From positions 34,667 to 98,666 of IMG/VR virus record IMGVR_UViG_3300045996_000470: DNA of 64,000 bases. The stretch is one strand, 5' to 3'. The DNA is from a virus. Taxonomy: Duplodnaviria > Heunggongvirae > Uroviricota > Caudoviricetes. Below, piece by piece: positions 33,514 to 63,222 of this stretch. A model generated the notes under the pieces. That model was not told the DNA's origin. It did not search any database and was given only the letters and a program-made list of their open reading frames with translations. Within the stretch, counting starts at the first letter, position 1, and each line of letters begins with the position of its first letter. The position numbers were made by a program, and so were the translations under genes.

Positions 33514-33541
33514 AGTATACAGGATTTTGTAGAAAAGTCAA
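33514..33541 (-). promoter_or_regulatory. leaderless sigma70-type promoter (copy 1 of a family)
   Basis: - strand TTGACT, 16 nt, TATACT, 7 nt, ATG. Confidence 0.5.
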
Positions 33542-33783
33542 GGGAGGAAGTATTTTAAGGTGACAAAGAACGCTCCTGCGATTGTAAAGGCTACAGCCCA
33601 TTGAAAAAACAACCGTATCCAGCCTTTGATTCTTTCCCAGCGTGGCTCTTCTGTGCCTTCTACTTCAATGTAATGCTCAAACATAGGTTCGGGGCTATTT
33701 CTAGCCCCTCTCGCCCCCGCAACCACCAACAGTTTATAGATACGTTGGCTATCTATCTGTGTAATCTGACTTACCCTTATCAA
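33538..33783 (-). CDS. small membrane protein
   Basis: 81 aa; C-terminal transmembrane segment WAVAFTIAGAFFVTL. Confidence 0.3.
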   Translation of the reverse strand: MIRVSQITQIDSQRIYKLLVVAGARGARNSPEPMFEHYIEVEGTEEPRWERIKGWIRLFFQWAVAFTIAGAFFVTLKYFLP

Positions 33784-34879
33784 ATAGATAAGTATTAGTC
33801 AGGTACTTCAGAATAACTCGACCTACTTTATGGTCGTATCTTTCCTTAATAGGCTTAATAACAACGCCTTCCATCGGATGCTCTGGACTCAATAGAGATT
33901 CTTTGGAAATCTTCTCAACAGAGTTTATGATATTGTCGTAGTCATAGCTCATGTTGTTAAACGTAGGAACTGTTTCTACTCCGTGCAGTCTGCAAAGAGT
34001 CAAGAACATTTCTTGGTCTGCGTATTTCCCGTCAACCAATAAATCAAATGCTCTGAAACCAATTCCATTCTTGATTCCGTAATTATATTTCTTCTGGACA
34101 ATGCCAAAGACTTCTCCAAAAAGAATTACTTGCTTTGCATCTTGTCCTATTGTTAGAAGTAAATTACGAATAGAAGGCAGTGTCAGAGGATACCAATAAG
34201 TATTCCTCTCCATATCCTTATCCTCAGGTTTCTTCCTACGAAGCCCGTGAGAACCTGCCATAAACTCTCCCTCGATAAGCCCTACTCGGCAGTTAGTTCC
34301 GTGCAGCTTCTCTGTGATTACAACTTCCTCTCCCTCTTCTAGGACATTAGGATAGTTCCTAAGGTTTTCGATAGAAGTGTACTTGACAAATAAGGGATGG
34401 TCTTCCTCTGCATCACCTGCTGTTGCTCTCATTGCAGGTTCATACTTTAGAATGCCTAACAACTCAGCCAAATTATCTCCAAGCTGCAATAAGTTTATAT
34501 CAGTAGAAGCTTTTCCATTAGTGCTCTCACTTACCAATTGACTTACCACATCCCTAGGGATGGTCGTACCAAAGCTAGGCTCACCACGCAGCTTTGCCTG
34601 ACGAACACGAAGCATTGTCTCTCCGTTCTCGTTAGTAACAAACGTACCGTCAGGATTTTTCACTGACTGTAGGTGCTGTTTGATTTCTAGAATATCGGCA
34701 AGCTTCTCTGTAATCAAAGAGTCAGGGGTAATATAAACTACCCTCTCTCCCTCTTTGTAAAGGCCTTTACCGCAAACAATCTGCCATCCGTTAATATCGC
34801 AAATATCTAATCTATCTGCATCAGGATGATTCCTTAAATTTGTAACTTCTGCGACCTGCGCCACTACGTTGCTTGGCAT
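33749..34879 (-). CDS. RNA ligase (Rnl2-like family, KxHGxN motif) with N-terminal tRNA-binding OB (Myf/EMAP-like) domain
   Basis: 376 aa; N-terminus VAEVTNLRNHPDADRLDICDINGWQIVCGKGLYKEGERVVYITPDS matches the tRNA_bind OB fold; nucleotidyltransferase motif I ITEKLHGTNCRV (compare T4 Rnl2 EKIHGTN). Confidence 0.55.
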   Translation of the reverse strand: MPSNVVAQVAEVTNLRNHPDADRLDICDINGWQIVCGKGLYKEGERVVYITPDSLITEKLADILEIKQHLQSVKNPDGTFVTNENGETMLRVRQAKLRGEPSFGTTIPRDVVSQLVSESTNGKASTDINLLQLGDNLAELLGILKYEPAMRATAGDAEEDHPLFVKYTSIENLRNYPNVLEEGEEVVITEKLHGTNCRVGLIEGEFMAGSHGLRRKKPEDKDMERNTYWYPLTLPSIRNLLLTIGQDAKQVILFGEVFGIVQKKYNYGIKNGIGFRAFDLLVDGKYADQEMFLTLCRLHGVETVPTFNNMSYDYDNIINSVEKISKESLLSPEHPMEGVVIKPIKERYDHKVGRVILKYLTNTYLFDKGKSDYTDR

Positions 34880-34891
34880 TATCTTTTCTTC

Positions 34892-35272: not shown

Positions 35273-35576
35273 AAATAGTTACCTCAATTTTCTTTGGTCT
35301 TACTTCTTGTAGTGTGTATGTCTCTAGGGCATAGCCAGCACCGTGAGAACCGCTGCGAACCTTGCCTTTAATGTAAACATCGTAGTCTGCAAAGTACCAC
35401 ACGCCCACTGTGTCGTCCCACTCTCCCTCTTGGGTCTTCTGGATGCAGACAAAATTACCTAGCTTGTCTATGTACTTAGCGCTCATACCAAGAAGATTCC
35501 AATCTTCCCAACATTCATTCTCGTCGTAGCCCGGACGAGACTCTTCTAGCACCTCTATAATTTCCTCTGCTGTCAT
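35265..35576 (-). CDS. hypothetical protein, paralog of 34892-35272
   Basis: 103 aa; C-terminus YDVYIKGKVRSGSHGAGYALETYTLQEVRPKKIEVTIYE. Confidence 0.35.
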   Translation of the reverse strand: MTAEEIIEVLEESRPGYDENECWEDWNLLGMSAKYIDKLGNFVCIQKTQEGEWDDTVGVWYFADYDVYIKGKVRSGSHGAGYALETYTLQEVRPKKIEVTIYE

Positions 35577-36349
35577 AACTTCTCCTGAATTTTTTTTACA
35601 AAATTGTACTCAGCCCTCATTAAATCTGGGTACCTTTCTATAGCCCACAGTGCCACATAAAGCGGGGCGTGTGAGATAAGGTACTTCTTAAACATCCTCA
35701 AATAGGCACGCTTGTATGGAAGCTTTCTAAATCTTTCGAAAGCCATCACCATAACTTCCTCACGGATTAAATTCTCTTTCGCCTCATCGGGAGCATTCTC
35801 AAACTTTTGTTCATCAATCTCGACCTCTGCCCCGTCTGCTAACATAGTAGTGTAAGTGGGAGTAGGATTGATAAGAGTGTGAAGATGGTCATGGTCAAAT
35901 TCCTTCAACGCATTGTCAAAGAAATCTGCTGCTGACATTTTCAAATCAGAGCGTGTATTCTTTTCGTGGTACTTGTTCCAATATTCGTACAACTCATAGA
36001 ATACTTCCTTCTGAATCTTCGCTCTCTTCTTCAAAAGAAATTGAATGTCCCACATATGCTTGTCCCAATCAATGTCCCAAAAAATGTGAGACGCCTTAAG
36101 AGTAAGCATCAAATCAGGGTCAAGGACTTCTGACTTGGCGTATTTTAAGATAACAGGATTCTCTAGGAATTCGACTGTAGGAATCGGTTTAAATTCAGTG
36201 CGTTTAAAATCAGCTAGAATCTTTTGAAGCTGTATCTTATCGTCAAGGTTTTCAATAGCATAGTCCAAATCCTTAGGGACTCTATTAAAGTCTGGAAAGT
36301 GGTGCTTAATTGCCGTTGAGCCTATGATTACTGTATTAACCAAACGCAT
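35573..36349 (-). CDS. predicted nucleotidyltransferase-fold protein
   Basis: ~258 aa from the ATG at 36349 (the ORF track starts at a GTG at 36364); N-terminus VIIGSTAIKHHFPDFNRVPKDLDYAI has the GS...DxD pattern of Pol-beta-superfamily NTases; first gene of the operon that ends with the tRNA-binding RNA ligase. Confidence 0.35.
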   Translation of the reverse strand: MRLVNTVIIGSTAIKHHFPDFNRVPKDLDYAIENLDDKIQLQKILADFKRTEFKPIPTVEFLENPVILKYAKSEVLDPDLMLTLKASHIFWDIDWDKHMWDIQFLLKKRAKIQKEVFYELYEYWNKYHEKNTRSDLKMSAADFFDNALKEFDHDHLHTLINPTPTYTTMLADGAEVEIDEQKFENAPDEAKENLIREEVMVMAFERFRKLPYKRAYLRMFKKYLISHAPLYVALWAIERYPDLMRAEYNFVKKIQEKL

Positions 36350-36355
36350 AGGAAT

Positions 36356-36383
36356 ATGATACACTATTTTGTAGAATTGTCAA
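36356..36383 (-). promoter_or_regulatory. leaderless sigma70-type promoter (copy 2)
   Basis: - strand TTGACA, 16 nt, TATCAT, 6 nt, ATG (36349). Confidence 0.5.
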
Positions 36384-36487
36384 TAGGGTTGGAGGCACGT
36401 AAAGGATTCGAACCAATGAGTTTTCTTGAAGCTTTTATTTCGAAATTATTACTTCCTACTCTGTCCCTCTTTTCCATCTAGCGTTAC

Positions 36488-36781: not shown

Positions 36782-36782
36782 A

Positions 36783-37169
36783 TTAACTAGAAGCTAGAGG
36801 AAACCTATTCTTAATAGTCCTCAAAGCCAAATCCAATGGCGTCTTACCCTCTGGATATTTCTTAGTGTTCCAAGTCGTTGCTCCAATAAGGAAACAAATA
36901 CTCGTAAGACAGTTGCCCGTATCAGGCTCGTGAAACTTAGTCACAGGCACTTTAAGTTTTCTCAACTCGTCGTAAGCTTCCTGCAACTGCGTGTCACTAA
37001 ACGCTTCAAGAAGGATAATCGTCTTATCTTTTCTTGCCCAACGCTGCCACTCAGGGGTATCGTAATACTTCAATGCGTATTCCGTACCTGCGTGGTCACT
37101 CTGGATGCCCTGCTGTCTGCCCGACAAGTGCCTCAATGTAATTGTAATTCTTCTCTGCTCAGTCGTCAT
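36783..37169 (-). CDS. peptidyl-tRNA hydrolase, PTH2-like
   Basis: 128 aa; ITITLRHLSGRQQGIQSDHAG aligns with PTH2 [22 protein letters not shown], and EWQRWARKDKTIILLEAFSDTQLQEAYDELRKLKVPVTKFHEPDTGN...LIG aligns with the PTH2 QW...PKVVVKA...L...GL...IQDAGRT...LGIG region. Confidence 0.5.
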   Translation of the reverse strand: MTTEQRRITITLRHLSGRQQGIQSDHAGTEYALKYYDTPEWQRWARKDKTIILLEAFSDTQLQEAYDELRKLKVPVTKFHEPDTGNCLTSICFLIGATTWNTKKYPEGKTPLDLALRTIKNRFPLASS

Positions 37170-37197: not shown

Positions 37198-37377
37198 TTA
37201 GTCCTCTCTTATAATTAATCTTAGTAACACAAATGCTATTGAAATGCACGCCAGTATTCCAAAACCTATTCCCATTGAAGTGGGGTTAAGCACCGTAAGT
37301 ATTAATGTAAATACATTTATCCCAAGTAAAACGTAGTGCGCTTTTCTACTGTCTAAAATAGTGAGTAATCTTTCCAT
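37198..37377 (-). CDS. small membrane protein (59 aa, below the ORF-track cut-off)
   Basis: MERLLTILDSRKAHYVLLGINVFTLILTVLNPTSMGIGFGILACISIAFVLLRLIIRED; ATG 6 nt after the -10 of promoter copy 3. Confidence 0.35.
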   Translation of the reverse strand: MERLLTILDSRKAHYVLLGINVFTLILTVLNPTSMGIGFGILACISIAFVLLRLIIRED

Positions 37378-37646: not shown

Positions 37647-38675
37647 TTAATTGGCATCCTCCGAAACCATCTTAAAGACTCTTGTAACTTCTGGACGAAT
37701 TAACTTCCAGATATTATCTGAATAGTCTTTGCCATCTAACATATGAAAAAGAATAGAAGGATACTTATAGTTTTGATAATGCAAAGCATTAGTCTTTCTA
37801 TCACCCAAGTCAATAAAGAAAATCTTTGCTGTCAATTCTATTTCGTTATACTTCTCTTGCAACTCAGTCCTAACTTCTTCTACGAAATCGTAGAACTCGT
37901 CAGGAGTTCCTTCAAGAAGTTCCTCAAGAGTACCGTTCCTCATTGCTTCCCAAACAGTCTTTTCAGAGACGCCTGTAATCAAACGGTGAAGTCTCTTGTA
38001 CTCCTCTAACTTAATCTTGACACGTTCGCCATTAGAATATCTTAGTACAAACCCCTCAAGATTAGGCTCCTCGTAAGAAAGAATCTCTTCTAAAGAGTCA
38101 AAGGAATAAACCTTTGGAGTACGAAACCCGTACATCTTTGCAAGCTTCTTGTAATAAACAGCAGTAAACTCCTGCCCATGCTGCCAAACAGATAACAATA
38201 CTACGTCAGAGAAGTCGTAATTAACTACGACACGGTTCTCAGGATAAATAACTTCAAAGATAAACGTGTATCCTTCAAGCGGTAAGAAATCTCCAAGCAA
38301 CTCCTTTCCTCTCTTAGCTTGGTCTGATACAAATGAACCACGAGTCGCTGTTACCAACTGTCCCTGATACATCACAGCAACAAGCATAGACCCGTCCATC
38401 TTTTCTTCGACTACGAAATCACCTTCTGGCAACTTGCCATCAAGCTGTTCGTAAGAAAAGAACTTCTTAAAAGGACGAGCAACAATATTCCCCTCACCGT
38501 CAGCTATTAAGCCTCGGCAGTTAAGGGTAACATCATTCCAGACCCAAGCAAACTGAGTGTTAGCAGTGTAGTTGTACACCCACAAGTCTAACTCAGGGTG
38601 CTTCTCACGCTTAACCATCTTGTCTGTCAAGGCTTGGTCTAATGCTTCTTGTGTAAATAAATCAGTTAATTTCAT
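37647..38675 (-). CDS. ATP-dependent RNA ligase (Rnl1-like; nucleotidyltransferase motif I KMDGS)
   Basis: 342 aa; motif I VVEEKMDGSMLVAV (compare T4 Rnl1 KEDGSL); size and context fit an RNA ligase rather than the DNA ligase, which is found elsewhere. Confidence 0.45.
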   Translation of the reverse strand: MKLTDLFTQEALDQALTDKMVKREKHPELDLWVYNYTANTQFAWVWNDVTLNCRGLIADGEGNIVARPFKKFFSYEQLDGKLPEGDFVVEEKMDGSMLVAVMYQGQLVTATRGSFVSDQAKRGKELLGDFLPLEGYTFIFEVIYPENRVVVNYDFSDVVLLSVWQHGQEFTAVYYKKLAKMYGFRTPKVYSFDSLEEILSYEEPNLEGFVLRYSNGERVKIKLEEYKRLHRLITGVSEKTVWEAMRNGTLEELLEGTPDEFYDFVEEVRTELQEKYNEIELTAKIFFIDLGDRKTNALHYQNYKYPSILFHMLDGKDYSDNIWKLIRPEVTRVFKMVSEDAN

Positions 38676-38865: not shown

Positions 38866-39204
38866 TTAATAACAGTCCGGTACACTAATATGGAAGTGAG
38901 GGGCAGTCCAGACCTTTTGCCCTCTAGGACGCTTCCTTTCGTCCACTACTATGTAACCCCACTTTGTTAAAACCTCTGTTAACATCGCCATATGAAAGGT
39001 TGTCCTTCCCTTGACGCTTACGTCTATAGCTTTTCCTCGGTAATGCTTGCTTCGAGCGTTATGAGGTCCCCCCATTTCGGAACTGACTCTCCATCCCATT
39101 TTCACTACTATGTCTTTTAAATCTTTGTAGTTAGTCTGACAAACCTGTGAGAAACCGTTCCCACAAAAACAAATAAGTAATACGAAAATTACGATAACTT
39201 TCAT
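38866..39204 (-). CDS. peptidase M15-type peptidoglycan hydrolase with signal peptide (endolysin candidate)
   Basis: 112 aa; signal peptide MKVIVIFVLLICFCGNGFSQ; zinc-binding motif SKHYRGKAIDV (SxHxxGxAxD) and a downstream HFHI, as in L-Ala-D-Glu peptidases / VanY-like M15. Confidence 0.55.
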   Translation of the reverse strand: MKVIVIFVLLICFCGNGFSQVCQTNYKDLKDIVVKMGWRVSSEMGGPHNARSKHYRGKAIDVSVKGRTTFHMAMLTEVLTKWGYIVVDERKRPRGQKVWTAPHFHISVPDCY

Positions 39205-39738: not shown

Positions 39739-39950
39739 ACTCCTTCGATGTCTGTTACTTGTCTAAAGCCTCGACTTATCCTCACTAATCCAAAACAAAT
39801 TAACGCCATTGCCAGCCTAGAGAACCATTTCCAGTTGTCCCCTGTACCAAACTCTGTAAACATATAAATGCTTCCCGAAATGAAAAACAAAAAAGCATTT
39901 ACAATCAATATGGCTTCGAGAGCGTAATCAAAATCTCTAGATTTTGTCAT
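39735..39950 (-). CDS. small membrane protein
   Basis: 71 aa; two hydrophobic helices. Confidence 0.35.
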   Translation of the reverse strand: MTKSRDFDYALEAILIVNAFLFFISGSIYMFTEFGTGDNWKWFSRLAMALICFGLVRISRGFRQVTDIEGV

Positions 39951-40162
39951 TTTAAAATATCCCCTTCTTTATATTTGCAGCCTTCCTCGGAAGCCTGTAC
40001 CCAAATAATTCCCCATCCTTTAGTTTCCGGTTCAACCCTTAGCCAGCAAGATTTTCCATCAGGATTAAAGTGAACTCGTTCTACCTTCACTGGGTATTTG
40101 ATGTACGTATTACAGCCAAAAGAAAACAAACCCAAGAGTAAAATTAACAATATACCTTTCAT
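39947..40162 (-). CDS. small lipoprotein
   Basis: 71 aa; lipobox LFSFG-C. Confidence 0.35.
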   Translation of the reverse strand: MKGILLILLLGLFSFGCNTYIKYPVKVERVHFNPDGKSCWLRVEPETKGWGIIWVQASEEGCKYKEGDILK

Positions 40163-43461: not shown

Positions 43462-43698
43462 CTATGCATAGCCTCTAAAAATAGAGGCTGTTAACCATTG
43501 CAATGCGCTTACTATATCTTCATCGCTTGCAGTTTCTAGCCATTCATCTTCCCAAACCCTTAAGTTTTGGTCTCTGAGAATGCTCCAACGGCTCATTCCT
43601 TTAGGGGGACGAGTAGTTAAACCAAATTCGTCCCGCCAATTTTTAATCCTACCTATGACTATTTCTCTCATATTAAAACTCGTGATAAGGGTTACCAA
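43462..43698 (-). CDS. hypothetical protein
   Basis: 78 aa. Confidence 0.3.
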   Translation of the reverse strand: MVTLITSFNMREIVIGRIKNWRDEFGLTTRPPKGMSRWSILRDQNLRVWEDEWLETASDEDIVSALQWLTASIFRGYA

Positions 43699-44575
43699 AC
43701 TGCATCAGAGGGAGTCCCTCTTCTGCCCACAGTTCCCTACACACCTGAGGTCTATCGTCAACAACAAGGTACACAAGGTATTTGTTCTTAATATGCTCCT
43801 CATAAAGCTCTCTTTTGATAATAGAATCCTTCCTAGAATCCCCTGCTTTTCTCATATACAGGTGGTCGTAAGCAATTCCATGTGCTTTCAACCAATTCTC
43901 GGTAGGAGTTCTACCCAAATCTTCCTTACGGCCTGACAGGCAGATAAGAGTTACGTCCTCTCTGTCAGCGTACATCTTAGCGATATCCACCACCGGCAAG
44001 TTAGGGAGGTCTTCGTGACACCTAGTCTCGTCAAATGGTGAACGCCCGTTCATCAGCGCAAGAGTACCATCAAGGTCAAAAATGACTGCCTTCGGTTTAT
44101 CGCCGTAGTAGTAATTGCAATCTGTGTAAAGCTTCTTCGGAGGAAGAAACTCTGCCTTCTGTTTCATAATAACCTTCTTCCAAAAGTCCTTACCTTCTGG
44201 ACGATTGGCACAACGCTCGATACAAACATCTATCGGAACGTCTGAAAAATCCTTTACCTCAAAATCATACTGCTCCCTGTACTTCGGGAACACAAGCGCC
44301 TTCACATTCTTTATGTGAAGCTTGTTGAGATTCGTGTCAGCTACGATAACTGACTGTCCCTTCTCAAGAGCCTTCATAATAAGTTCGTTACGCTTCTCAA
44401 CAACTTTAGATTCCTTCACTCTCTTTTCGTTGTCGCCAACAACAGCACCCATTGATGCACGAATATCATCCTTGCATACGATTACTGTGTTAGGATTAGC
44501 AGACACGTACTCATTAGCCCAAGTAGTTTTGCCTGAGCCTGAAAGTCCGTATGTCATTATCACCTTATTCTTCAT
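43673..44575 (-). CDS. pnk: polynucleotide kinase-phosphatase (T4 Pnk-like: 5'-kinase + 3'-phosphatase)
   Basis: 300 aa (T4 Pnkp is 301 aa); N-terminal P-loop GLSGSGKTTWANEY; C-terminal HAD phosphatase motif I VIFDLDGTLA plus a downstream DDR. Confidence 0.8.
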   Translation of the reverse strand: MKNKVIMTYGLSGSGKTTWANEYVSANPNTVIVCKDDIRASMGAVVGDNEKRVKESKVVEKRNELIMKALEKGQSVIVADTNLNKLHIKNVKALVFPKYREQYDFEVKDFSDVPIDVCIERCANRPEGKDFWKKVIMKQKAEFLPPKKLYTDCNYYYGDKPKAVIFDLDGTLALMNGRSPFDETRCHEDLPNLPVVDIAKMYADREDVTLICLSGRKEDLGRTPTENWLKAHGIAYDHLYMRKAGDSRKDSIIKRELYEEHIKNKYLVYLVVDDRPQVCRELWAEEGLPLMQFGNPYHEF

Positions 44576-45408: not shown

Positions 45409-45652
45409 TTATCTTAACTGTACTCTCGGAATCTTTTTGCTTGCTTGTATGCTCAAACATAGTTCCATCTTTGTCTAATTGTCTGATAATTAGTTGAATA
45501 TATCTTTCTGGTCTGTTGTATCTTTGAGACCCTTCCTCTATACGTTCTACGATGGCTTTCGTCACGCCGTTAGAGATACAGACTATCCAATCGCCAACAC
45601 GTATCTCGTTCCCGTAATAATCTTTTGCTGATTCTAATGTTCTTCTAGCCAT
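45398..45652 (-). CDS. hypothetical protein, paralog of 45645-45866
   Basis: 84 aa; shared core VGDWIVCISNG...IVERIEEG..RYNRPERYIQLIIRQLDKDG versus VVFSWAGTLYKGIIERIRPV...PPRYELTIRPLNADG. Confidence 0.35.
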   Translation of the reverse strand: MARRTLESAKDYYGNEIRVGDWIVCISNGVTKAIVERIEEGSQRYNRPERYIQLIIRQLDKDGTMFEHTSKQKDSESTVKINEN

Positions 45653-45866
45653 TTATCTTAATCGTAGTGTACGAACACTTAACTTTAGCTGTAGTCTCAT
45701 ACGCCTCTCCATCTGCATTCAAGGGTCTAATCGTCAACTCGTATCTTGGAGGGATAGACCTGACCGGACGTATCCTTTCTATGATTCCCTTGTAAAGAGT
45801 TCCAGCCCAACTAAAGACTACCATATCGGTTTCTATTAGTGGAGTCCCATACGTATCAGTTGCCAT
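45645..45866 (-). CDS. hypothetical protein, paralog of 45398-45652
   Basis: ~73 aa from the ATG at 45866 (the track starts at a TTG at 45872); leaderless promoter immediately upstream. Confidence 0.35.
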   Translation of the reverse strand: MATDTYGTPLIETDMVVFSWAGTLYKGIIERIRPVRSIPPRYELTIRPLNADGEAYETTAKVKCSYTTIKING

Positions 45867-49622: not shown

Positions 49623-49891
49623 ACATCGTCCTCAAATAATTCGTATACTGACCTTCGCACCGGCTCTCCCGTTGTTTCAGGGGTTGCCTTTTCCCAATCT
49701 AAGTAGACCGCTTCTGCATTAGGGTTAGCCGCTAGTCTTAATTCTTCTACCCTTAATTCGTTTAGTTTTTCTTCTTCCTCTCTTTGATAGTCCTGCTCTG
49801 TAATCTCTCTCAAAACTACGATACTGCCCCAAATAGCAAGTCCTGACAGTATTAAAAGTACGACAATTTCTAGCCAATAAGCTTTAGCCAT
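49619..49891 (-). CDS. small membrane protein
   Basis: 90 aa; N-terminal transmembrane helix AYWLEIVVLLILSGLAIWGSIVVL. Confidence 0.3.
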   Translation of the reverse strand: MAKAYWLEIVVLLILSGLAIWGSIVVLREITEQDYQREEEEKLNELRVEELRLAANPNAEAVYLDWEKATPETTGEPVRRSVYELFEDDV

Positions 49892-50537
49892 TACTTTTCC
49901 TCAACTCATTTGGTATCCACTCTTTAGTCCAATGCACATCCGTCTGAACGTGATTAGGTCTAACTGCCTTAGCCAAATTTTTTTGGAAATCGTTGTAGTG
50001 ATAACTCATTACGTTACGAATAACTATTCCTTCGTGTCCGCTTGCTATGATGTGGTTGTAAGTGTGTACAAGGAAGTCTAAGTGTTGCTCATAATCAAAG
50101 AGGACAATTCTAGAGTCAATCTCTACGTGTGTTAATCCTAATTCATAACACATGTGCTGTGTCTGTAGTAAGTCAAGGCATTCGTTCTTATCATTCCAAA
50201 TACTAAAAACATAAAAGAAGCTTTTCAAATCTGTGTAATGAATAGAGTGCTTCGCGTACAGATTCTCCCCACAAATTCTCCATCCTCTAGGAATCAGGTG
50301 CTTAATTCCTGCGTGTATCTGTTTAACTACAGACCTAGAAGGGTGGTGAGTAGAGTCCAACGACCTAGCGTGGATGCCATCACGATACATAGAGGTGTTC
50401 TCTCCATCCATCTTGACAGTAACTGCTACTTGCTTTCCATTGAAACACGATTCATCTTCCATTCTCCTGTCGTCATTTTGCAGACCTAGAGAGAAAGGCA
50501 AGTGATATGTTTTAGGATATTTATGTTGATTTTCCAT
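49884..50537 (-). CDS. small RNA-ligase-family protein (Rnl2-like minimal nucleotidyltransferase; motif I KxDGxN)
   Basis: 217 aa; motif I VTVKMDGENTSMY; WRICGENLYAKHS (motif III-like); SGHEGIVIRNV (motif IV-like); FQKNLAKAVRPNH (motif V-like). Confidence 0.4.
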   Translation of the reverse strand: MENQHKYPKTYHLPFSLGLQNDDRRMEDESCFNGKQVAVTVKMDGENTSMYRDGIHARSLDSTHHPSRSVVKQIHAGIKHLIPRGWRICGENLYAKHSIHYTDLKSFFYVFSIWNDKNECLDLLQTQHMCYELGLTHVEIDSRIVLFDYEQHLDFLVHTYNHIIASGHEGIVIRNVMSYHYNDFQKNLAKAVRPNHVQTDVHWTKEWIPNELRKSNG

Positions 50538-51343: not shown

Positions 51344-51566
51344 CCCTCCATCCCTTTTCCTCAGATTTCTTCAGGACTTTCTCAAAAACCTCTATAGTCT
51401 TAAAGAAATTTCTGTACATCAGAATCTCTGGTTGGTCTTTGCGGGGGTCTACCTTCATTACAGCACCCCCGTTTTTATGTGCAGCCATAGCTACCACGGC
51501 TAAGAGTTGTCCCTTTACCAAGATAGCTATGTCTGTCGTTACTGCTATTGTTTCTTCTTCTGCCAT
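51312..51566 (-). CDS. hypothetical protein
   Basis: 84 aa. Confidence 0.3.
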   Translation of the reverse strand: MAEEETIAVTTDIAILVKGQLLAVVAMAAHKNGGAVMKVDPRKDQPEILMYRNFFKTIEVFEKVLKKSEEKGWRVVHQGAPNYG

Positions 51567-52756
51567 TAATCCTGCCTTACAGCCTTAAACTTAGGATGCC
51601 TAGGGATGCCATACTTTGACCTACCGAAAAATTCAATCGTTGCTTGTTTTCCGATAAGGTTTTTCCTATCATTGTAAAGCGCCATCCCTTTCTCGTGACT
51701 GATTCCTTTACCAAGTCCCGGAGCAAAGGTAGTAATCTCTTTACCGTCTCTGTCCACCGTAGGTTTGTCCAACTTACAAATTACCCTACCCAAACGCCCC
51801 TGCTTGTTCAACTCAAAGTCCACAATTTCAAACTCTGCATCCTCGTACAGCTTACACTTAACCAAAGACCAGCTACGTTTATGTTCATAACCCTTATCCA
51901 GAGTTCTAATCATTAACCCTTCGTGTCCCTGTTCAAGAAACTCGTCAGTCTTTTCGGCAATCTTCTCGTCAGTAGCTTCAATCTCAAAGCTAGGGACAAC
52001 AATAACGTTGTCAGACGCAAACTGTTTAAGAAATTCATAGCGCTCCTTGTAATTCTTATCGCTATACGTGTCGTAAAGGTAGTACTTTACCTTCTTAAGT
52101 TGTTCTTCCTCTTCCGGTGTGCGGCTCTCCCTGCGCAACAGCCCACCCAAGTCGTCAAAGGCAAACTCAGAACTATAAAGTTCTCCATCAAGAGGGACAT
52201 CCCCTGTTAGCCCAAGTCTTTCATAAGACTCTCTAAGTTCCTTCTCTACGTGAGGAAGTGTGCCTGTCCTGTCACCCTTACGAGTATAGATTTGTACTTC
52301 GTCCGGAGTTACCTGAATAGGGGCGCGATAGCCGTCATACTTAGGCTGTACGTGAATAATATCGCCCTTAATCTTCATTTTCTCAAGAGTCTTAGAAGAA
52401 CTCTGCTTGCCTAGCGGGTCATATTTATGAGCCAGCATAGGAGTGAGAATTCCTGACCGGAGAACGCCTTTCTTGGCATCCTTTAAGTCTGTTACATATT
52501 GGTCACGGAGTTTCTTTTCTAACTTCGCTTCTGCTTCGGCAACAGCTTGCGTGTATGGTGTGGTAGCATTGGCTTTACCAATGTTCTTTCCTGCGGTAAC
52601 AGGGGTTGACTCAAGTTTCATCTTCATTCCCAAGACGCCTGACTCCCTGTGGATTATCGCCGGTGCTGTCTGGTTCGTTGGGTCACCTTCTACCCAAATC
52701 GTCCAAATAAGGTCTTGTCCCTTGCTGCTTATTTTGTAGATGCTTGTTTTTTTCAT
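51566..52756 (-). CDS. lig: ATP-dependent DNA ligase
   Basis: 396 aa; motif I VQPKYDGYRAPI (KxDGxR); motif IV-V GHEGLMIRTL ... WSLVKCK. Confidence 0.75.
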   Translation of the reverse strand: MKKTSIYKISSKGQDLIWTIWVEGDPTNQTAPAIIHRESGVLGMKMKLESTPVTAGKNIGKANATTPYTQAVAEAEAKLEKKLRDQYVTDLKDAKKGVLRSGILTPMLAHKYDPLGKQSSSKTLEKMKIKGDIIHVQPKYDGYRAPIQVTPDEVQIYTRKGDRTGTLPHVEKELRESYERLGLTGDVPLDGELYSSEFAFDDLGGLLRRESRTPEEEEQLKKVKYYLYDTYSDKNYKERYEFLKQFASDNVIVVPSFEIEATDEKIAEKTDEFLEQGHEGLMIRTLDKGYEHKRSWSLVKCKLYEDAEFEIVDFELNKQGRLGRVICKLDKPTVDRDGKEITTFAPGLGKGISHEKGMALYNDRKNLIGKQATIEFFGRSKYGIPRHPKFKAVRQD

Positions 52757-52880: not shown

Positions 52881-54008
52881 TTACTTGTTGTAATAAAATC
52901 CAGAATCCTTCGCCCATCGCTTAACTATAGTTCTTTCATTTGGTCGGGCTATCCTATTTGCTAGCCCTCTAACCTGATTTACGTTATTCCCCCTAACTTC
53001 AATGGTTAGCTTTTTATTGTCATTCAGTGTTAATGACCAGATAGAAGATTTTCCAGCTATACATTCATTCTTATAAGACAGTACGCAATGCCGCATTGCG
53101 TTTCCTTCTTTTTGAAGCTCTTTTGCCGACTTTATCTGTGTAAATTTCCACAAATTAACTGTATCATCAGAATTCTTCTGAGAGTACTGCCTATCTTTGA
53201 CTGGAGTCCCTTCCCAATTAGCCTCTCCTATTAGTTTCAAACGTCTTAGGTCTTGGTGCCATTGTTCTACTTTTTTAGTTAGAGATTCAATTGTGTGCCC
53301 CTTGCCAATAATAGTAAAATCTGTATCTTCTCGACGCCTATAAACAATGTAATCGACAATATCATCAAGCTGTTCTTTTGATTTAGGTTCTTGGCGAGCA
53401 AAAAATTTTACTACCTCTCTCCAAAACTCCTCTGTTAAATCAAAAGCATTAATTTTTGTTTTGGAGATTCGTAAAGCTTTTCCTGTGTTATTTGATTCAG
53501 TATAAGCTATAGCGTATACAATTGCCTCGTCTATTGGAATTTCATAGTGACAATTCAAAAATGTGTGACATTCTTTTTTTGTAAATAAAGCCTGCCCGTA
53601 TTCCTTATAAAATGAACCGCCCGTTGCAATACAAATATACCAAAGCCTGTAATCTTCTTTGGTAGCAAATCCATAATCAACAGAAGGAACTGAAGAATGA
53701 TACCACTCTCGCCTCGGTGATGGAGTTTCCCAAGCATTAAACATAAACTCGGGAACAGGGTAAAGATGGAAAACGTGACGGACAAATTCAAAACGCTGTT
53801 TATCTCTATGCTTGCTTCTAGTTTTTAGGATAAAAGAATCCTTATCTCTAATAAAGAATCCCTTGTATTCCTTAAAGTCCTCAGACACATCAGGAACAGG
53901 TTCTGCCAGCTTGGCTTTAACTTCTCTAGTCCGTGCAGCAAAATTCTGTTGGAAATTAGCCTCAGCTTGTGCTAATTCTTCATTTTTTAATTTGGTCGCA
54001 CGCCCCAT
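52881..54008 (-). CDS. hypothetical protein (375 aa) with conserved-looking C-terminal NAMRHCVLSY motif
   Basis: ATG at 54008 lies 6 nt after the -10 of promoter copy 9 (the track starts at a GTG at 54023); no fold recognised. Confidence 0.35.
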   Translation of the reverse strand: MGRATKLKNEELAQAEANFQQNFAARTREVKAKLAEPVPDVSEDFKEYKGFFIRDKDSFILKTRSKHRDKQRFEFVRHVFHLYPVPEFMFNAWETPSPRREWYHSSVPSVDYGFATKEDYRLWYICIATGGSFYKEYGQALFTKKECHTFLNCHYEIPIDEAIVYAIAYTESNNTGKALRISKTKINAFDLTEEFWREVVKFFARQEPKSKEQLDDIVDYIVYRRREDTDFTIIGKGHTIESLTKKVEQWHQDLRRLKLIGEANWEGTPVKDRQYSQKNSDDTVNLWKFTQIKSAKELQKEGNAMRHCVLSYKNECIAGKSSIWSLTLNDNKKLTIEVRGNNVNQVRGLANRIARPNERTIVKRWAKDSGFYYNK

Positions 54009-54126: not shown

Positions 54127-54489
54127 TTAGTTGCAAGCGAAAATTAGATACTTCTCCGGTGTAGGGTCTCCTCTCCTGTACCAATCAGAAACTGCGTTAA
54201 CTCGCATTATCTGTAAATCCTGTCTTAAGAACATAAACGCTCTAGTGCGAATTCTGTAGTTTTTGCAATCTGCCTCAAAAGACAGAAAAGCAAGCATATT
54301 TCCGTAAGGGTGCATAGCCCAAAAAACCCTTCTGCCATTTTTTAGGACTTGAAGGGAGCTTTTGTCGGAATAGTGGGCAACTCCGTCAATATCTACGAAA
54401 ATGGGCGAATAATCCTCTTTTTGGAGGGATTGTGTAGATACAGCTAAACTGCCGAATAGGAAAAGAGCGATAAGTAGTAATTTCCTCAT
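54127..54489 (-). CDS. secreted protein (signal peptide)
   Basis: 120 aa; MRKLLLIALFLFGSLAVSTQS. Confidence 0.35.
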   Translation of the reverse strand: MRKLLLIALFLFGSLAVSTQSLQKEDYSPIFVDIDGVAHYSDKSSLQVLKNGRRVFWAMHPYGNMLAFLSFEADCKNYRIRTRAFMFLRQDLQIMRVNAVSDWYRRGDPTPEKYLIFACN

Positions 54490-54551
54490 AATTGAGGATT
54501 ATACAATAATTAAAGGATTAAAAGCAAACTACTCTCTATCTGTTAGGAATT

Positions 54552-56826: not shown

Positions 56827-57118
56827 GTTTTTGTATCTCCTCCACTTGTTCTTTTGTTTTAAGTTCCTGTAGAGCTAGTATCTTGTCAAGTTTTCGTATC
56901 TCTGCTTCCTGTTCCTCAAGCTTCCTAGCTCTTTCTAAAGCTATTTTATACTCATAAGTATGTGTATAAGCATTCTGTTCGTGCAAACGCTTACCATCCT
57001 CTCTAAATGCTCCCCAAGCATCGTAGAAAGGGGCAGGAATTCCGTTCCCAATAAGATAAGCAAGAGTTATTGCTAACCCAACTATAACTAATCTTTTTCT
57101 GGTAAAGTATTCTCTCAT
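56798..57118 (-). CDS. membrane-anchored coiled-coil protein
   Basis: 106 aa; N-terminal transmembrane helix then EEQEAEIRKLDKILALQELKTKEQVEEIQKLEK. Confidence 0.3.
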   Translation of the reverse strand: MREYFTRKRLVIVGLAITLAYLIGNGIPAPFYDAWGAFREDGKRLHEQNAYTHTYEYKIALERARKLEEQEAEIRKLDKILALQELKTKEQVEEIQKLEKTNNRSR

Positions 57119-57558
57119 ATTTGTGGTTGCGTATAAATCTGTAATTCGTAATCCTGTTGAATCTCTGATACATCATCGAAAAACAAATTATACATGCTGC
57201 CCGGAGGAGTCCAAGATGTGTACGTTCCTACAGGAAGTATACCACCTTTTCTTTCAGGGTCTAGGTGTGGAACAACGAAATGGTATGAACAAGTGTTCGA
57301 AGTAAATTCGTAATCCCCCTGTGCATTTACAGTCTGTGTTGTTCTAGTCATTAGATTAAACTTAATGCTAAATTGTTGGTGCGTTATCTGCACCATATGC
57401 TTATTTATATATTTCTGGCTTTCTTTATCAGCACCCCGTATTTGTCCGTAAAATCTCACCGGCTGTGTTACACAACAAATAGGACATTGGGTATCTTGAG
57501 CAAACGATGCCAAAGTACCCGCTAATATCAGACTAATTGCTAAGATTATTTTTTTCAT
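57115..57558 (-). CDS. secreted protein (signal peptide)
   Basis: 147 aa; MKKIILAISLILAGTLASFAQ. Confidence 0.35.
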   Translation of the reverse strand: MKKIILAISLILAGTLASFAQDTQCPICCVTQPVRFYGQIRGADKESQKYINKHMVQITHQQFSIKFNLMTRTTQTVNAQGDYEFTSNTCSYHFVVPHLDPERKGGILPVGTYTSWTPPGSMYNLFFDDVSEIQQDYELQIYTQPQI

Positions 57559-58270: not shown

Positions 58271-58579
58271 TTATTTCTTAAACCCTTCAAACCATCCTAA
58301 TTTTTCAGCGTGTTCGAAAACCTCTAAAGCATCTTCTAGTTCACTAACTAGTAATTCGCCTTCTGTTAGAACTAGTTTGTCTTGGGCAGTCATTTGCCTG
58401 TTTGCGTATCTCTGTAGAGCAGGATAAAGACTATTGATTAGCCAATCCTCTCCATCCCAAAGAATTTCTCGTTTATCTACGGCTAACCAGAGCGCGTAGA
58501 ATGAGCCATCTTCTCTAAGATTACCTTCCAACTTTACACTGTCGCTATCGCTGGTTATTGTTCTTGATTCAAAACTCAT
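58271..58579 (-). CDS. hypothetical protein
   Basis: 102 aa. Confidence 0.3.
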   Translation of the reverse strand: MSFESRTITSDSDSVKLEGNLREDGSFYALWLAVDKREILWDGEDWLINSLYPALQRYANRQMTAQDKLVLTEGELLVSELEDALEVFEHAEKLGWFEGFKK

Positions 58580-58929
58580 TTTATAATTTTGAAATTCTCT
58601 ACGCCAATTTCCTTAAGAGCATCCTCACAAGGTTGGCAGAAAAATTCATGCCCTTTCAATACTGCTGTATGCGCTTTGTAACGCTCCGGTAAATTCTTTA
58701 TTGCGTGTACCTCGGCATGTGTCCACCCACACTCGGAAGTTGTATCGTAATTCTCTTTGTTCTGCACCACTCCAAGCCTAGCACAGATTCCACCTTCCGG
58801 TTCACAGGTATTAGCCCCGCTTGAAACTACCTTTCCCTCTTTACTAATAAGGACACAAACTACCGGACGCTTCTGACAAGTGCTTTCTCTGGCGACTGCC
58901 TCAATTAGCTCTTTTAAATTCAAACTCAT
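58576..58929 (-). CDS. CMP/dCMP-deaminase-family zinc-dependent deaminase
   Basis: 117 aa; HAEVHAI and CQPCEDAL (H-x-E ... P-C-x-x-C zinc ligands). Confidence 0.6.
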   Translation of the reverse strand: MSLNLKELIEAVARESTCQKRPVVCVLISKEGKVVSSGANTCEPEGGICARLGVVQNKENYDTTSECGWTHAEVHAIKNLPERYKAHTAVLKGHEFFCQPCEDALKEIGVENFKIIK

Positions 58930-58939
58930 TACGTGTATC

Positions 58940-59194
58940 TTACACTATAGGTTGGTCTTTGTCAATAACCTTCGCTAAACCCACTGCAATAAGCCAAGTT
59001 AGGGCTTCAATGGCTTCGTGTTCCATTTTCTTATCCCACTCGTTCTGCCCAAACTCCTCCTCTTGATTTTTCCAAATTTTAAGGTACTGTTTCAGAGTTG
59101 TCCCTTCATTAGGGTCTAGCCCGTGAATATACCCTACATAATTATGGCGGGGGATTTCGTTTTTAGGTTCTTTTACTCTTAAATACTTAATCAT
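58940..59194 (-). CDS. hypothetical protein
   Basis: 84 aa. Confidence 0.3.
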   Translation of the reverse strand: MIKYLRVKEPKNEIPRHNYVGYIHGLDPNEGTTLKQYLKIWKNQEEEFGQNEWDKKMEHEAIEALTWLIAVGLAKVIDKDQPIV

Positions 59195-59459: not shown

Positions 59460-59674
59460 ATAGTCATGTGAAATGTTTCTCCATCTGTACCATACGAAGT
59501 GTGTTTATGTTTACAGGGAGTTACTTTATGCGGATATTCTTTTAACATAGTGTGTTTGTATCCACAGCTTATCAAGTTACATTTACTCTTCTTAGAAGTG
59601 CCTATAGAAATCATTTTCCCTTTTCCGCACTTGTCGCAAATGTAATTTACTTCTCCGTCTTTATACTGTTCCAT
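59417..59674 (-). CDS. zinc-ribbon protein
   Basis: 85 aa; CDKCGKG...C...C and CLECG. Confidence 0.3.
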   Translation of the reverse strand: MEQYKDGEVNYICDKCGKGKMISIGTSKKSKCNLISCGYKHTMLKEYPHKVTPCKHKHTSYGTDGETFHMTICLECGIILDYVGK

Positions 59675-59865
59675 TATTTGTATTGGAGTCCTATTTTCAG
59701 AGTCTCTTCAAATCTCTTAACAATTTCCTCGACAATAATTTCTCCGTCACTGATAGCTCTGTATAGTTCCTCTCTAGATAAGTCCTCGTCGTCTTTTCTA
59801 TCGTAGTAAAGAAATTTACTGACTAAATCGTCTATTGTTCCAAGAATTTGTACCTTTCTACTCAT
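59674..59865 (-). CDS. hypothetical protein
   Basis: 63 aa. Confidence 0.3.
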   Translation of the reverse strand: MSRKVQILGTIDDLVSKFLYYDRKDDEDLSREELYRAISDGEIIVEEIVKRFEETLKIGLQYK

Positions 59866-60882: not shown

Positions 60883-61102
60883 TTGGCTCTCCTTGTCTTT
60901 CTAGTTCTTCTATTCTATTTTCTACATCAGTTAAATCCAAACTAAGTTGGTTAACGGATTGGATTAATAGGTTTATTTTTTTAGTAATCTGTGTTTGTTT
61001 GTCTCCAAGTCTTTGTAATTCCACAACTACTTTTTTGAAATCTTCTCTTTCCATTAATATTGCTCCAATACAGGCATAAACCGTGTATATTGCTTCAACC
61101 AC
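60866..61102 (-). CDS. coiled-coil protein (its start is probably the internal ATG at 61054, coupled TAATG to the primase-helicase stop)
   Basis: 78 aa as drawn; the internal Met gives 62 aa with no overlap. Confidence 0.3.
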   Translation of the reverse strand: MVEAIYTVYACIGAILMEREDFKKVVVELQRLGDKQTQITKKINLLIQSVNQLSLDLTDVENRIEELERQGEPIEYIN

Positions 61103-63189
61103 GCTAAATGTACGGCTCCTGTAGGTCCATTTCTCTGTTTCGCCACATCTACTTTCGCCAGTCCTTTCAAATCGGTATCATCGGGACTGTAATACTCCGG
61201 ACGAAACATAAATGCTACTACGTCTGCATCCTGCTCAATGCCGCCCGACTCTCTAAGGTCACTTAGCTTAGGCTCAGGGTTAGGACGACCCTCAGGCGCT
61301 CGTGAAAGCTGCGATAGAGCTATAAGAGGAACTCTAAACTCTTTTGCCAAACCCTTAAGGTCGGCAGAAATTTCTGAAACTTCCTGTACCTTGTTGTAAT
61401 GATTCTTACCGCTACTTCCCTTCATTAACTGTATATAATCGACTACGACCATGTCCAGCCCCCCCTCTTGCTCAAGCCTTAATAGCTTGCTGCGCATTTC
61501 AGCCACGCCAATCCTAGGGGTATCGTCAATGTAAAGCCCCGCTTCGTCCAATACCGGAAGTATCTTAGCAATTCTTGCCCAATCAGCTTCCTGCATTCCC
61601 CCGTTTTTAAAGTCAAACGAGTTGACGTAAGCCTCAGAACACATCACTTTAGAGATAAGTTGCTCTTCGCTCATTTCCAAAGAGAATACAGCTACGTTTT
61701 TTCCGCCTCTGATGGCAGCGTGAGCAGCCATATTCATCGCAAAACTAGTCTTACCCATTGACGGACGCCCCGCAATAATAATCAAGTCGGTATTCTGCCA
61801 TCCAGAGGTCATATAATCTAAATCCGGAAATCCGGTAGAGATTCCTGTTATGCCCTTTCCTACAGCTTCCCTAGCATTAACTATGACATTCTCTAAGCCA
61901 CTTCCAAGTCTTGAAAGTCCCTTTTTCTTATCGTCAATTTTAACACTGTACACCTTATCAATAAAGGTGTCTGTAAGCATTTTGACCGGCTGTGCTTCGT
62001 GTTCTGCCAAGCTCGATAAGTTCTTACCGAGAGTAACCAATTCTCGGTACTGAGATTTAGCAATAACAATTTTAATCCACGAATCAATATCAAAAACTTC
62101 CGGAAGTCCCTCTTCCAACTGTTCAATAGTTTCGACGCCGCCCAGATTGATTAAGGATTTTTTATCAAATTTGTCAGCAAGGGTGATAACATTAACATCT
62201 TGCTTGTCATTATAACATTCTATTACCGCATCTAAAATTGCTTTAGTTTTCTTATCAAAAAAATGTTTCTGAAGTTCGTTCTCAATAACTCTACCCACAA
62301 GAATAGGATTTTTGAGAATCGCTCCTAAAATTGCCTTCTCTGCCTCTACGTTGTGAGACTGAGATGGGTCTATTGCTAAATCCTCTTCGGTGTACCGTAA
62401 CGGCTCTACTTCTCGACACAGATAGAGCAAATCATCCAGAGTGTTCCCCTCTTCCAGATAATTACTTACATCATACTTTGGTTCATCTGATGGAAGCTGA
62501 ACTATTTTAACCGAATTGGCTGACCGGTAAACTTCCTTAGAAACTAGCTCTGCGTGGTCGTATCCCGATACATCATTATCCGCAAGGATTATAACGTCCC
62601 TGTTTGCGAAATACTTATTAAAGTGTTTCTCCCATTTTGTCGCTCCACCTGAGTTTGTCGTGGCGATTGCCCCTGCCTCTGTCAGATTGTCGGCGTCTTT
62701 TTCTCCCTCGACAATAAACACCGGCTCAGCACTAGACTCTAGAACCTTAGGCAGGTTATAAATAGTTCTAGTTACGCCCTGCAAATCCCAGACCGCTTTT
62801 CCTCTATTGTCAAATCGTCTTTGTAGAAACTTCTTCGGTTCAAACCGGACAACTTGATAAAGTAACTTCCCTGCCTCGTCTGTGTAGTCGTAGGTCGCTA
62901 CAATCTTAGATTCGATTTTTTCTCTCTTCTCAGGAACATCTTTCCACATTCCTAGAGAACGTACGATACTTTCGAAATCGCACCCCGCGAAACACTTAAA
63001 GCCAACTGTATTTCCTGATTTAATAAAGGATAGAGAAGGTCTACCGTCGTTGTGAGCAGGACAGCGGGCAACCCACCACCCACCATTTCCCTTCTTGACT
63101 TTTGACAGGCTAGACTTTACTTCATCAAAGTCTAGTGCAAACCTGTCGTCCTTTTCAAATTTTTGCCCATCCTGTTCAAAAAACGCCAT
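61054..63189 (-). CDS. bifunctional DNA primase (DnaG-type zinc finger + TOPRIM) / DnaB-family replicative helicase
   Basis: 711 aa; zinc finger WWVARCPAHNDGRPSLSF...CFAGC; TOPRIM FIVEGEKDADNL...ILADNDVSG; DnaB N-terminal domain EKAILGAIL; Walker A AGRPSMGKTSFAMNMA; no intein insertion seen. Confidence 0.85.
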   Translation of the reverse strand: MAFFEQDGQKFEKDDRFALDFDEVKSSLSKVKKGNGGWWVARCPAHNDGRPSLSFIKSGNTVGFKCFAGCDFESIVRSLGMWKDVPEKREKIESKIVATYDYTDEAGKLLYQVVRFEPKKFLQRRFDNRGKAVWDLQGVTRTIYNLPKVLESSAEPVFIVEGEKDADNLTEAGAIATTNSGGATKWEKHFNKYFANRDVIILADNDVSGYDHAELVSKEVYRSANSVKIVQLPSDEPKYDVSNYLEEGNTLDDLLYLCREVEPLRYTEEDLAIDPSQSHNVEAEKAILGAILKNPILVGRVIENELQKHFFDKKTKAILDAVIECYNDKQDVNVITLADKFDKKSLINLGGVETIEQLEEGLPEVFDIDSWIKIVIAKSQYRELVTLGKNLSSLAEHEAQPVKMLTDTFIDKVYSVKIDDKKKGLSRLGSGLENVIVNAREAVGKGITGISTGFPDLDYMTSGWQNTDLIIIAGRPSMGKTSFAMNMAAHAAIRGGKNVAVFSLEMSEEQLISKVMCSEAYVNSFDFKNGGMQEADWARIAKILPVLDEAGLYIDDTPRIGVAEMRSKLLRLEQEGGLDMVVVDYIQLMKGSSGKNHYNKVQEVSEISADLKGLAKEFRVPLIALSQLSRAPEGRPNPEPKLSDLRESGGIEQDADVVAFMFRPEYYSPDDTDLKGLAKVDVAKQRNGPTGAVHLAWLKQYTRFMPVLEQY

Positions 63190-63194
63190 ACCCT

Positions 63195-63222
63195 ATCTTA
63201 TCCTATTTTCCAGAATTGTCAA
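63195..63222 (-). promoter_or_regulatory. leaderless sigma70-type promoter (copy 11)
   Basis: - strand TTGACA, 16 nt, TAAGAT, 5 nt, ATG (63189). Confidence 0.4.

Follow-up and report, generated by a model that had tools for sequence, protein, structure and literature searches.

Leaderless mRNAs are a familiar feature of Deinococcus-Thermus and Actinobacteria, and the cI transcript that phage lambda makes from PRM is the classic single case. Phages also carry families of near-consensus sigma70 promoters, such as the early promoters of T5, T7 (A1-A3) and SPO1, whose transcripts have leaders with a ribosome-binding site. In phage P23-45, leaderless transcripts form a temporal class. The same holds for the Thermus thermophilus phage phiYS40, whose leaderless middle/late class has been linked to a rise in initiation factor IF2 and a fall in IF3, according to a later paper that summarises the work (PMC3594737, citing Sevostyanova et al. 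2007). In Deinococcus radiodurans, leaderless genes with experimental support have a -10 element about 6-7 base pairs (bp) before the open reading frame (ORF) (PMC12340547), and Zheng et al. used the same -10 spacing signal to call leaderless genes across bacteria (PMC3160421). Here, an arrangement of this kind is described in a 64,000-nucleotide (nt) stretch of DNA, called the window (positions 34,667 to 98,666 of IMG/VR record IMGVR_UViG_3300045996_000470, Caudoviricetes), where a family of near-identical promoter-like elements on the minus strand stands directly before the start codons of first genes.

The 13 elements of this family are most likely promoters of the primary sigma factor (sigma70/sigmaA type), and, judging from the sequence, they are probably active and yield mRNAs that begin with the AUG itself and are translated without a Shine-Dalgarno (SD) sequence. 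The likeness to the leaderless genes of Deinococcus-Thermus and Actinobacteria lies in a TANNNT -10 element about 6-7 nt before the AUG and in the lack of an SD. Leaderless promoters in those bacteria, however, mostly consist of the -10 element alone, whereas a TTGACA -35 element, a fixed 16-nt spacing and a conserved spacer are present here, and they belong to a high-GC host chromosome rather than to a phage of 41% guanine-cytosine (GC) content. In the account given by the later paper, phiYS40 is comparable in that it is lytic and makes an entire class of leaderless transcripts, but that class is middle/late, while the present one concerns the replication and nucleotide-metabolism arm, is confined to first cistrons and has -35 boxes. 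The phiYS40 host phylum also differs in using leaderless mRNAs very widely. The T5, T7 and SPO1 early promoters resemble the family in being multiple, near-identical, host-type, gene-oriented and scattered through the early region; they are leadered, whereas here the -10 element abuts the ATG. What is new is the combination of full-consensus -35 and -10 elements at a fixed 16-nt spacing, fused to the AUG in at least 13 copies and kept in a low-GC clade, and the phage clade that shows it is uncultivated and unrelated to the phiYS40, Deinococcus or lambda precedents.

A preliminary description of the window had listed eleven copies, all of which were found on the minus strand where it had placed them, and its layout of TTGACA or TTGACT, a 16-17-nt spacer, a -10 element, 5-7 nt and an ATG holds at each. 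Its total was too low, as a loose regular expression returned two extra copies, with -35 elements at 58965 and at 31338, bringing the number to 13 and possibly 14. The sites, with the first gene of each (lengths in amino acids, aa) and their weight-matrix scores, are as follows.

P1, 63187..63222 (minus strand): TTGACA at 63222-63217, 16-nt spacer, TAAGAT at 63200-63195, 5-nt gap, ATG at 63189; 25.7 bits; first gene primase-helicase, 63189..61054 (minus), 711 aa (Pfam DnaB_C, DnaB, Toprim).
P2, 59863..59900 (minus strand): TTGACT, 17-nt spacer, TAGGAT, 6-nt gap, ATG at 59865; 38.6 bits; first gene 59865..59674 (minus), 63 aa.
P3, absent from the earlier list, 58927..58965 (minus strand): TTGACA, 17-nt spacer, TAAGAT, 7-nt gap, ATG at 58929; 20.9 bits; first gene dCMP/cytidine deaminase-like, 58929..58576 (minus), 117 aa; the site lies within the 3' end of the upstream ORF 59194..58940, whose TAA stop is part of the -10 element.
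P4, 54006..54042 (minus strand): TTGACT, 16-nt spacer, TATCAT, 6-nt gap, ATG at 54008; 31.1 bits; first gene PcfJ-like, 54008..52881 (minus), 375 aa.
P5, 52754..52791 (minus strand): TTGACT, 16-nt spacer, TATCAT, 7-nt gap, ATG at 52756; 38.5 bits; first gene ATP-dependent DNA ligase, 52756..51566 (minus), 396 aa.
P6, 50737..50773 (minus strand): TTGACT, 16-nt spacer, TAGAAT, 6-nt gap, ATG at 50739; 32.5 bits; first gene a membrane protein, 72 aa; the upstream gene's TGA stop is inside TTGAC.
P7, 45864..45901 (minus strand): TTGACA, 16-nt spacer, TATTAT, 7-nt gap, ATG at 45866; 42.3 bits; first gene 45866..45645 (minus), 73 aa.
P8, 41050..41086 (minus strand): TTGACA, 16-nt spacer, TATAAT, 6-nt gap, ATG at 41052; 35.0 bits, 12/12 consensus positions; first gene 100 aa (minus).
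P9, 39202..39239 (minus strand): TTGACA, 16-nt spacer, TATAAT, 7-nt gap, ATG at 39204; 38.3 bits, 12/12 consensus positions; first gene a secreted protein, 112 aa, with a weak Peptidase_M15_3 match.
P10, 37375..37411 (minus strand): TTGACT, 16-nt spacer, TAGGAT, 6-nt gap, ATG at 37377; 22.3 bits; first gene a membrane protein, 37377..37198 (minus), 59 aa; the upstream gene's stop codon is within the spacer.
P11, 36347..36383 (minus strand): TTGACA, 16-nt spacer, TATCAT, 6-nt gap, ATG at 36349; 40.9 bits; first gene a DUF7277/DUF7275 protein, 36349..35573 (minus), 258 aa.
P12, 33504..33541 (minus strand): TTGACT, 16-nt spacer, TATACT, 7-nt gap, ATG at 33506; 34.7 bits; first gene 105 aa (minus); the upstream gene's TGA stop is inside TTGAC.
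P13, absent from the earlier list, 31302..31338 (minus strand): TTGACA, 16-nt spacer, TACAAT, 6-nt gap, ATG at 31304; 23.6 bits, 11/12 consensus positions; first gene a small nucleotidyltransferase-domain protein, 31304..31017 (minus), 95 aa; the end of the -10 element is shared with the stop of the upstream ORF 31524..31309.
Weaker candidate for a 14th site, 54487..54527 (minus strand): TTGCTT, 18-nt spacer, TG-TATAAT (54503-54498), 8-nt gap, ATG at 54489; in a 62-nt intergenic gap before a 120-aa secreted protein, and below the matrix threshold.

The -35 element is TTGAC with a sixth base of A or T at all 13 sites, and the -10 element is TANNNT at all 13, with four to six of its six positions agreeing with TATAAT. 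The spacer is 16 nt long at 11 sites and 17 nt at two, which is the short end of the 17 +/- 1 range, while the gap from the -10 element to the ATG is 5 nt once, 6 nt at seven sites and 7 nt at five, and the base preceding the ATG is T in 10 of 13 cases. Every promoter lies on the coding strand of the minus arm, at a gene boundary. The MAFFT consensus of the sites reads CnC-TTGACA-ATTATACAAAAT-nGTG-TATnAT-A-nnnnT-ATG, and the similarity spans about 35 bp, with one limit at the ATG and the other about 6 nt before the -35 element, and no flanking homology.

All 13 occurrences of the pattern TTGAC(A/T)-N16-17-TANNNT-N5-7-ATG are on the minus strand, the plus strand having none, and dinucleotide shuffles (n=300) gave a mean of 0.13 matches and a maximum of 3 with both strands taken together. 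Aligning the sites and building a weight matrix, as the preliminary description had proposed, confirmed the motif: the two-block matrix from the 13 sites gives one further match with more than 12 bits, at 42426 (13.0 bits) inside a gene, and none on the plus strand of the window. An ATG follows at 5-7 nt in 13 of the 14 matrix matches (p about 3e-16). A generic sigma70 scan remained at chance level overall, with the family sites as its top scorers.

Two features of the family go beyond what the sigma70 consensus requires. A C-rich run, often CCCC, stands at positions -6 to -1, just before TTGAC, even where the DNA is noncoding between a stop codon and the -35 element. At spacer positions 4-11 there is a conserved T-TACAAAA(T), which at three sites forms TACA-N6-TGTA together with the start of the -10 element. 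Terminator-promoter pairs were considered as the source of the C-rich flank and rejected, with a hairpin found at site 54042 only.

The claim that family genes lack an SD is borne out by duplex energies with the anti-SD, measured on 17-nt segments that end 4 nt before the start codons. These are at background level for the 13 promoter-proximal genes, with a median of -1.9 kcal/mol and 0 of 13 at or below -6, compared with a median of -2.2 kcal/mol for random positions. The median is -7.3 kcal/mol for plus-strand genes (68% at or below -6) and -5.5 kcal/mol for internal minus-strand genes (40% at or below -6).

The start codon is ATG in 13 of 13 cases, as the search pattern itself required, and the ORFs that these codons open all fit the tiling of the neighbouring genes. 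Neither the primase-helicase gene nor the 63-aa gene has another in-frame ATG, GTG or TTG within its first 60 codons, and most of the remaining first genes have no alternative SD-bearing start near the N-terminus. Twenty metagenomic homologues of the primase-helicase (40-72% identity) are of near-equal length, start within 1-3 residues of the same Met and share conserved residues from position 2-10 onward, and orthologues of the PcfJ-like protein and the ligase start at the same residues as the window genes. This test of the true N-terminus covers these three genes. As described earlier, the ORFs called at 36364, 54023 and 45872 begin at GTG or TTG within the promoter, with the ATG 2-5 codons in, and ORF 31319 has the same mis-start; these calls arise because the frame happens to be open there.

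In sigma70 promoters the -10 hexamer occupies -12 to -7, so that with a gap of 6 nt the A of the start codon becomes +1. The choice of start site has a tolerance of about one base either way and favours a purine after a pyrimidine, which agrees with the T-A junction here, and efficient leaderless initiation in bacteria needs an AUG start codon. In the proposed mechanism, the bacterial RNA polymerase holoenzyme with its primary sigma factor would recognise the 13 elements and begin transcription at the A of the ATG, giving a 5'-triphosphate AUG mRNA whose 5' untranslated region would be absent or no longer than 1-2 nt. Translation of the first cistron would follow the leaderless route, with the 5' AUG bound by a 70S ribosome or by 30S-IF2-fMet-tRNA and no SD involved, and the later cistrons of each 1-6 kb unit would depend on moderate SDs or on coupling at overlapping stop and start codons. 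The proposal that transcription would start at or within 1-2 nt of the A agrees with a geometry that is far beyond chance and is kept in related phages.

Related phages were represented by six comparison loci (L001-L006), the contigs of six primase-helicase homologues from four sequence archives. Above 10 bits, the window matrix matched these loci 35 times, and 23 of the matches have an ATG 6-9 nt past the -10 element (6 nt in 13, 7 nt in five, 8 nt in four and 9 nt in one), each opening a called gene; the binomial p is about 8e-19 for a gap of 6-9 nt and about 2e-14 for a gap of exactly 6. The relatives' spacers are mostly 16-17 bp, and the A-rich spacer is kept. The geometry is held at orthologous genes despite diverged promoter sequences, with the following gaps between the -10 element and the ATG.

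Primase-helicase: window 5 nt, L001 6 nt, L002 6 nt, L006 8 nt.
PcfJ-like gene: window 6 nt, L004 6 nt, L006 7 nt.
DNA ligase: window 7 nt, L002 8 nt, L004 6 nt.
Sliding clamp: L001 6 nt, L002 6 nt.

In L003, the primase-helicase gene comes directly after the clamp gene and has no promoter, which indicates that the arrangement is tied to the first gene of a unit and not to particular genes. In L005, the most distant locus (41% identity, on a 180-kb contig), the family is absent and there is a leader containing a GAGAG box, so the trait is common to a clade and not universal.

The comparison loci also contain family-type promoters with no ATG within 40 nt, namely L003 737-790 (plus strand), L003 2696-2640 (minus strand) and L001 534-590 (plus strand). 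The two in L003 run into the identical sequence AGGTTAGAGAAA, and such promoters may serve small RNAs or leadered units. GIY-YIG/LAGLIDADG homing-endonuclease genes lie among the replication genes (L001 3537-4094; L004 5400-6056, 7421-8125 and 12831-13640), and the primase-helicase homologue P0015 (889 aa) carries an intein-like LAGLIDADG insertion.

Within the window, the promoters occupy or overlap the 3' ends of preceding genes, and upstream stops fall in TTGAC, the spacer or the -10 element at several sites. The distance from the upstream stop to the ATG varies from 4 to 124 nt while that from the -10 element to the ATG stays at 5-7 nt, which argues that it is the promoter whose position is fixed relative to the ATG, rather than the upstream gene. 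Among the other minus-strand genes, 49 of 67 overlap their upstream neighbour, typically by ATGA or TAATG, and these probably rely on coupling together with moderate SDs. Because most of these genes overlap their neighbours and have no strong SD, the distinct initiation mode that had been proposed applies to the first cistron of each unit but not to the remaining minus-strand genes.

A terminator-like hairpin (GGGGC..GCCCC) is found directly upstream of P4 (54042) only, among the 13 sites, and terminator-like sites are just modestly above the shuffle mean (within about 1.7 standard deviations). The minus arm has a sole clear canonical terminator, just after the CCA-adding enzyme gene.

29777..29798 (minus strand): intrinsic terminator, GGGGCTacaAGCCCC then TTTTTT.

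With almost no terminators in the arm, nested and co-terminal transcripts are expected, amounting to 13 or more nested units, each led by a leaderless cistron. A GC hairpin, AGGGGAGTCTTGCTCCCCT, also lies at 31533-31551, between the minus-strand genes 31557..32363 and 31524..31309; its T-run is on the plus strand only, so that it is terminator-like for antisense transcription.

The family had been set against the plus-strand structural genes, all of which were said to have strong AGGAG sites and TGGTATAAT promoters. The difference in SD energies stands, but the contrast is otherwise weaker than stated: a strong SD is found in just the 68% of plus-strand genes given above, and TGGTATAAT precedes only two of them (8762 and 10863), its total count being at chance level. 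One promoter-like site of the family's kind is itself on the plus strand.

378..407 (plus strand): TTGACA-aagttagacaaaaacata-TACAAT, with an 18-nt spacer and the family's GACAAAA signature.

This site is followed by a leader of about 165 nt, ending in AAAGGAGGAG (a strong SD) before the portal-like gene at 574, and is the leadered counterpart of the promoter family. The two arms therefore differ in leader design and not clearly in promoter class. The leader, within 378-573 on the plus strand, could hold a regulatory RNA element; Rfam found no match in it. An early/middle temporal class, as suggested in the preliminary description, is plausible for the family genes on gene content only, which comprises replication, nucleotide and RNA-repair functions.

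For the phage sliding clamp (L002 8459-9535), the closest named cellular homologues are only Pyrinomonadaceae, at about 40% identity, and named matches of the CCA-adding enzyme (29800-31020, minus strand) are only Pyrinomonadaceae and Acidobacteriota, at 42-43% identity. The DnaB domain of the primase-helicase (61054-63189, minus strand) has its top named matches in Terriglobales. Jointly, the clamp, CCA-adding enzyme and DnaB homologies, at about 40-45% identity, suggest that the host phylum is Acidobacteriota. Of 583 loci among species-representative genomes, the best 80 were all Blastocatellia, a result that is partly biased, the search patterns having been derived from an alignment that included such sequences. 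This evidence, of moderate strength, suggests a host in the Acidobacteriota, a little-studied soil phylum, and more closely in the Blastocatellia. A Bacteroidota host had been considered from signal peptides ending in FAQ/FSQ and was ruled out by the TTGACA/TATAAT promoters, the AGGAG structural genes and the three genes that point to Acidobacteriota. According to Zheng et al., 9.7-19.4% of the genes in three Acidobacteria genomes are predicted to be leaderless (PMC3160421). Should the putative host lineage have no comparable genome-wide signal, this would suggest a strategy specific to the phage.

Several points weigh against leaderless expression from these promoters. Promoter activity and the exact +1 position are what we infer from the DNA, and so are the way the mRNAs are translated and the reliance on a sigma factor of the host, not of the phage. 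A 16-nt spacer with TG abutting the -10 element is not the canonical 17-nt/TGn arrangement, and gaps of 5, 7 or 8 nt mean that the start could be 1-2 nt off the A. Over their first 40 nt, the 13 ORFs do not show less structure than the starts of internal genes. The promoter and initiation rules of Acidobacteriota are poorly characterised, and a crude scan of 80 Blastocatellia loci (1.18 Mb) for a host-wide leaderless signal gave no clear -10 peak, although it was of low power, with syntenic loci and rough ORF calls. Finally, terminators are few, so the same ATGs are also contained in read-through transcripts, and at five sites the upstream stop is just 4-19 nt before the ATG, where reinitiation is possible.

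These last two points also speak for an alternative in which the elements are true promoters but ribosomes reach the ATGs mostly on read-through polycistronic transcripts, through termination-reinitiation or 70S scanning, with the closeness of the -10 element and the ATG being a by-product of genome compaction and the new transcripts chiefly serving downstream cistrons. The single upstream hairpin, the scarcity of terminators and the prevalence of coupling among the other minus-strand genes fit this scheme, yet compaction gives no reason for the gaps to cluster at exactly 6 nt or for relatives to keep that spacing, and it leaves the tight spacing of the -10 element beside the loosely placed stop unaccounted for. 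Eight sites have an ATG 30-124 nt from the stop and no SD, which is unfavourable for reinitiation, and ATG is used throughout, as leaderless initiation requires; this alternative is therefore considered unlikely. Distinctly improbable is the proposal that the element is, or is also, the site of a phage sigma factor, activator or repressor that switches the gene class, in which case the true start may differ. It draws on the conserved T-TACAAAAT of the spacer, sometimes forming TACA-N6-TGTA with the -10 element, on information of 0.6-1.25 bits at spacer positions, on the C-rich 4-6 nt before the -35 element even in non-coding DNA, and on the persistence of the A-rich spacer in relatives and its absence from the plus-strand sites at 8762 and 10863. 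The invariant bases, however, are exactly those of sigma70 (TTGAC in the -35 element, and the first, second and last bases of the -10 element, T, A and T), and no sigma-like, anti-sigma or helix-turn-helix protein appeared among about 50 window proteins scanned. A regulator that binds the spacer would also be compatible with leaderless expression from sigma70 promoters, adding to it rather than replacing it. Hardly credible is a dispersed non-transcriptional repeat, such as a recombination or module boundary or a duplication remnant, with a fortuitous likeness to promoters. The copies are indeed highly similar and lie at gene boundaries, but they resemble each other over about 35 bp only, most closely at the promoter hexamers, and share no homology at the flanks, while all copies are gene-oriented at a fixed distance from the ATG and the relatives keep that geometry with diverged sequences. 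In the same set of about 50 window proteins, no translation factor or ribosome-modifying protein was recognised, some 57 kb of the genome lying outside the window.

The window is phage-like, and its proteins also occur on a JGI/IMG metagenome contig of 121,203 bp; the source is an uncultivated siphovirus-like phage of about 121 kb. Large structural genes occupy the plus strand from 158 to 28,799, including the portal-like gene, an S49 head protease, the major capsid and tail genes, a tape-measure-like protein of 2,486 aa and a fibre-like protein of 1,994 aa. On the minus strand, from 64,000 down to 28,796, there are about 80 genes, mostly small. They encode replication and nucleotide functions (primase-helicase, ATP-dependent DNA ligase, an SF2 helicase, the dCMP deaminase-like protein and a nucleoside deoxyribosyltransferase), as well as the PcfJ-like protein, PNKP, three RNA-ligase-family proteins, the CCA-adding enzyme and RNase T-like proteins. 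Among 50,697 phage records, no nucleotide match was obtained by megablast and no match to the portal and capsid proteins by tblastn, whether to Thermus phages or to others, and the primase-helicase and head protease matched cultured phages in generic domains only. IMG/VR scans with two window proteins gave no relative, a scan of the same database with the full promoter motif gave just four unrelated single copies, and Rfam and tRNA scans of the window gave no match.

The RNA-repair set of the minus arm is unusually rich, with PNKP, the three RNA-ligase-family proteins, the CCA-adding enzyme and an RNase T-like exonuclease (28796-29752, 29800-31020, 33749-34879, 37647-38675, 43673-44575 and 49884-50537, minus strand), and it looks like a counter-measure to tRNA-cleaving host defences. 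A weak PTH2-like match was obtained for ORF 36783-37169. Several small minus-arm proteins carry signal peptides or lipoprotein boxes, for example MKKIILAISLILAGTLASFAQ and an SPFH/Band-7 lipoprotein (genes at 38866-39204, 57115-57558, 54127-54489, 31557-32363 and 39947-40162, minus strand); these proteins could be superinfection-exclusion or envelope-modifying factors.

For annotation, automatic ORF calls mis-start four genes at GTG or TTG, and the motif provides a rule for correcting starts and finding operon boundaries. The 35-bp elements are also compact candidate expression signals independent of the SD, which could suit little-studied hosts. The probable host phylum, Acidobacteriota, is dominant in soil and has very few known phages. 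If the reading of the start sites is true, the window would offer a clean natural case of one gene class with full-consensus promoters fused to the AUG, and it would add a low-GC phage lineage to the Thermus phages and actinophages in which leaderless expression is class-wide. A tentative and rather doubtful suggestion is that an undescribed clade of 120-130 kb soil phages, probably growing on Blastocatellia, has made the leaderless start the rule for the first gene of almost all operons in the replication arm. On that suggestion, a class-specific regulator would have the conserved spacer of the promoters as its handle, and expression of these genes would possibly escape a block of SD-dependent initiation that the phage or a defence induces, or would possibly be favoured by phage-driven remodelling of initiation factors.

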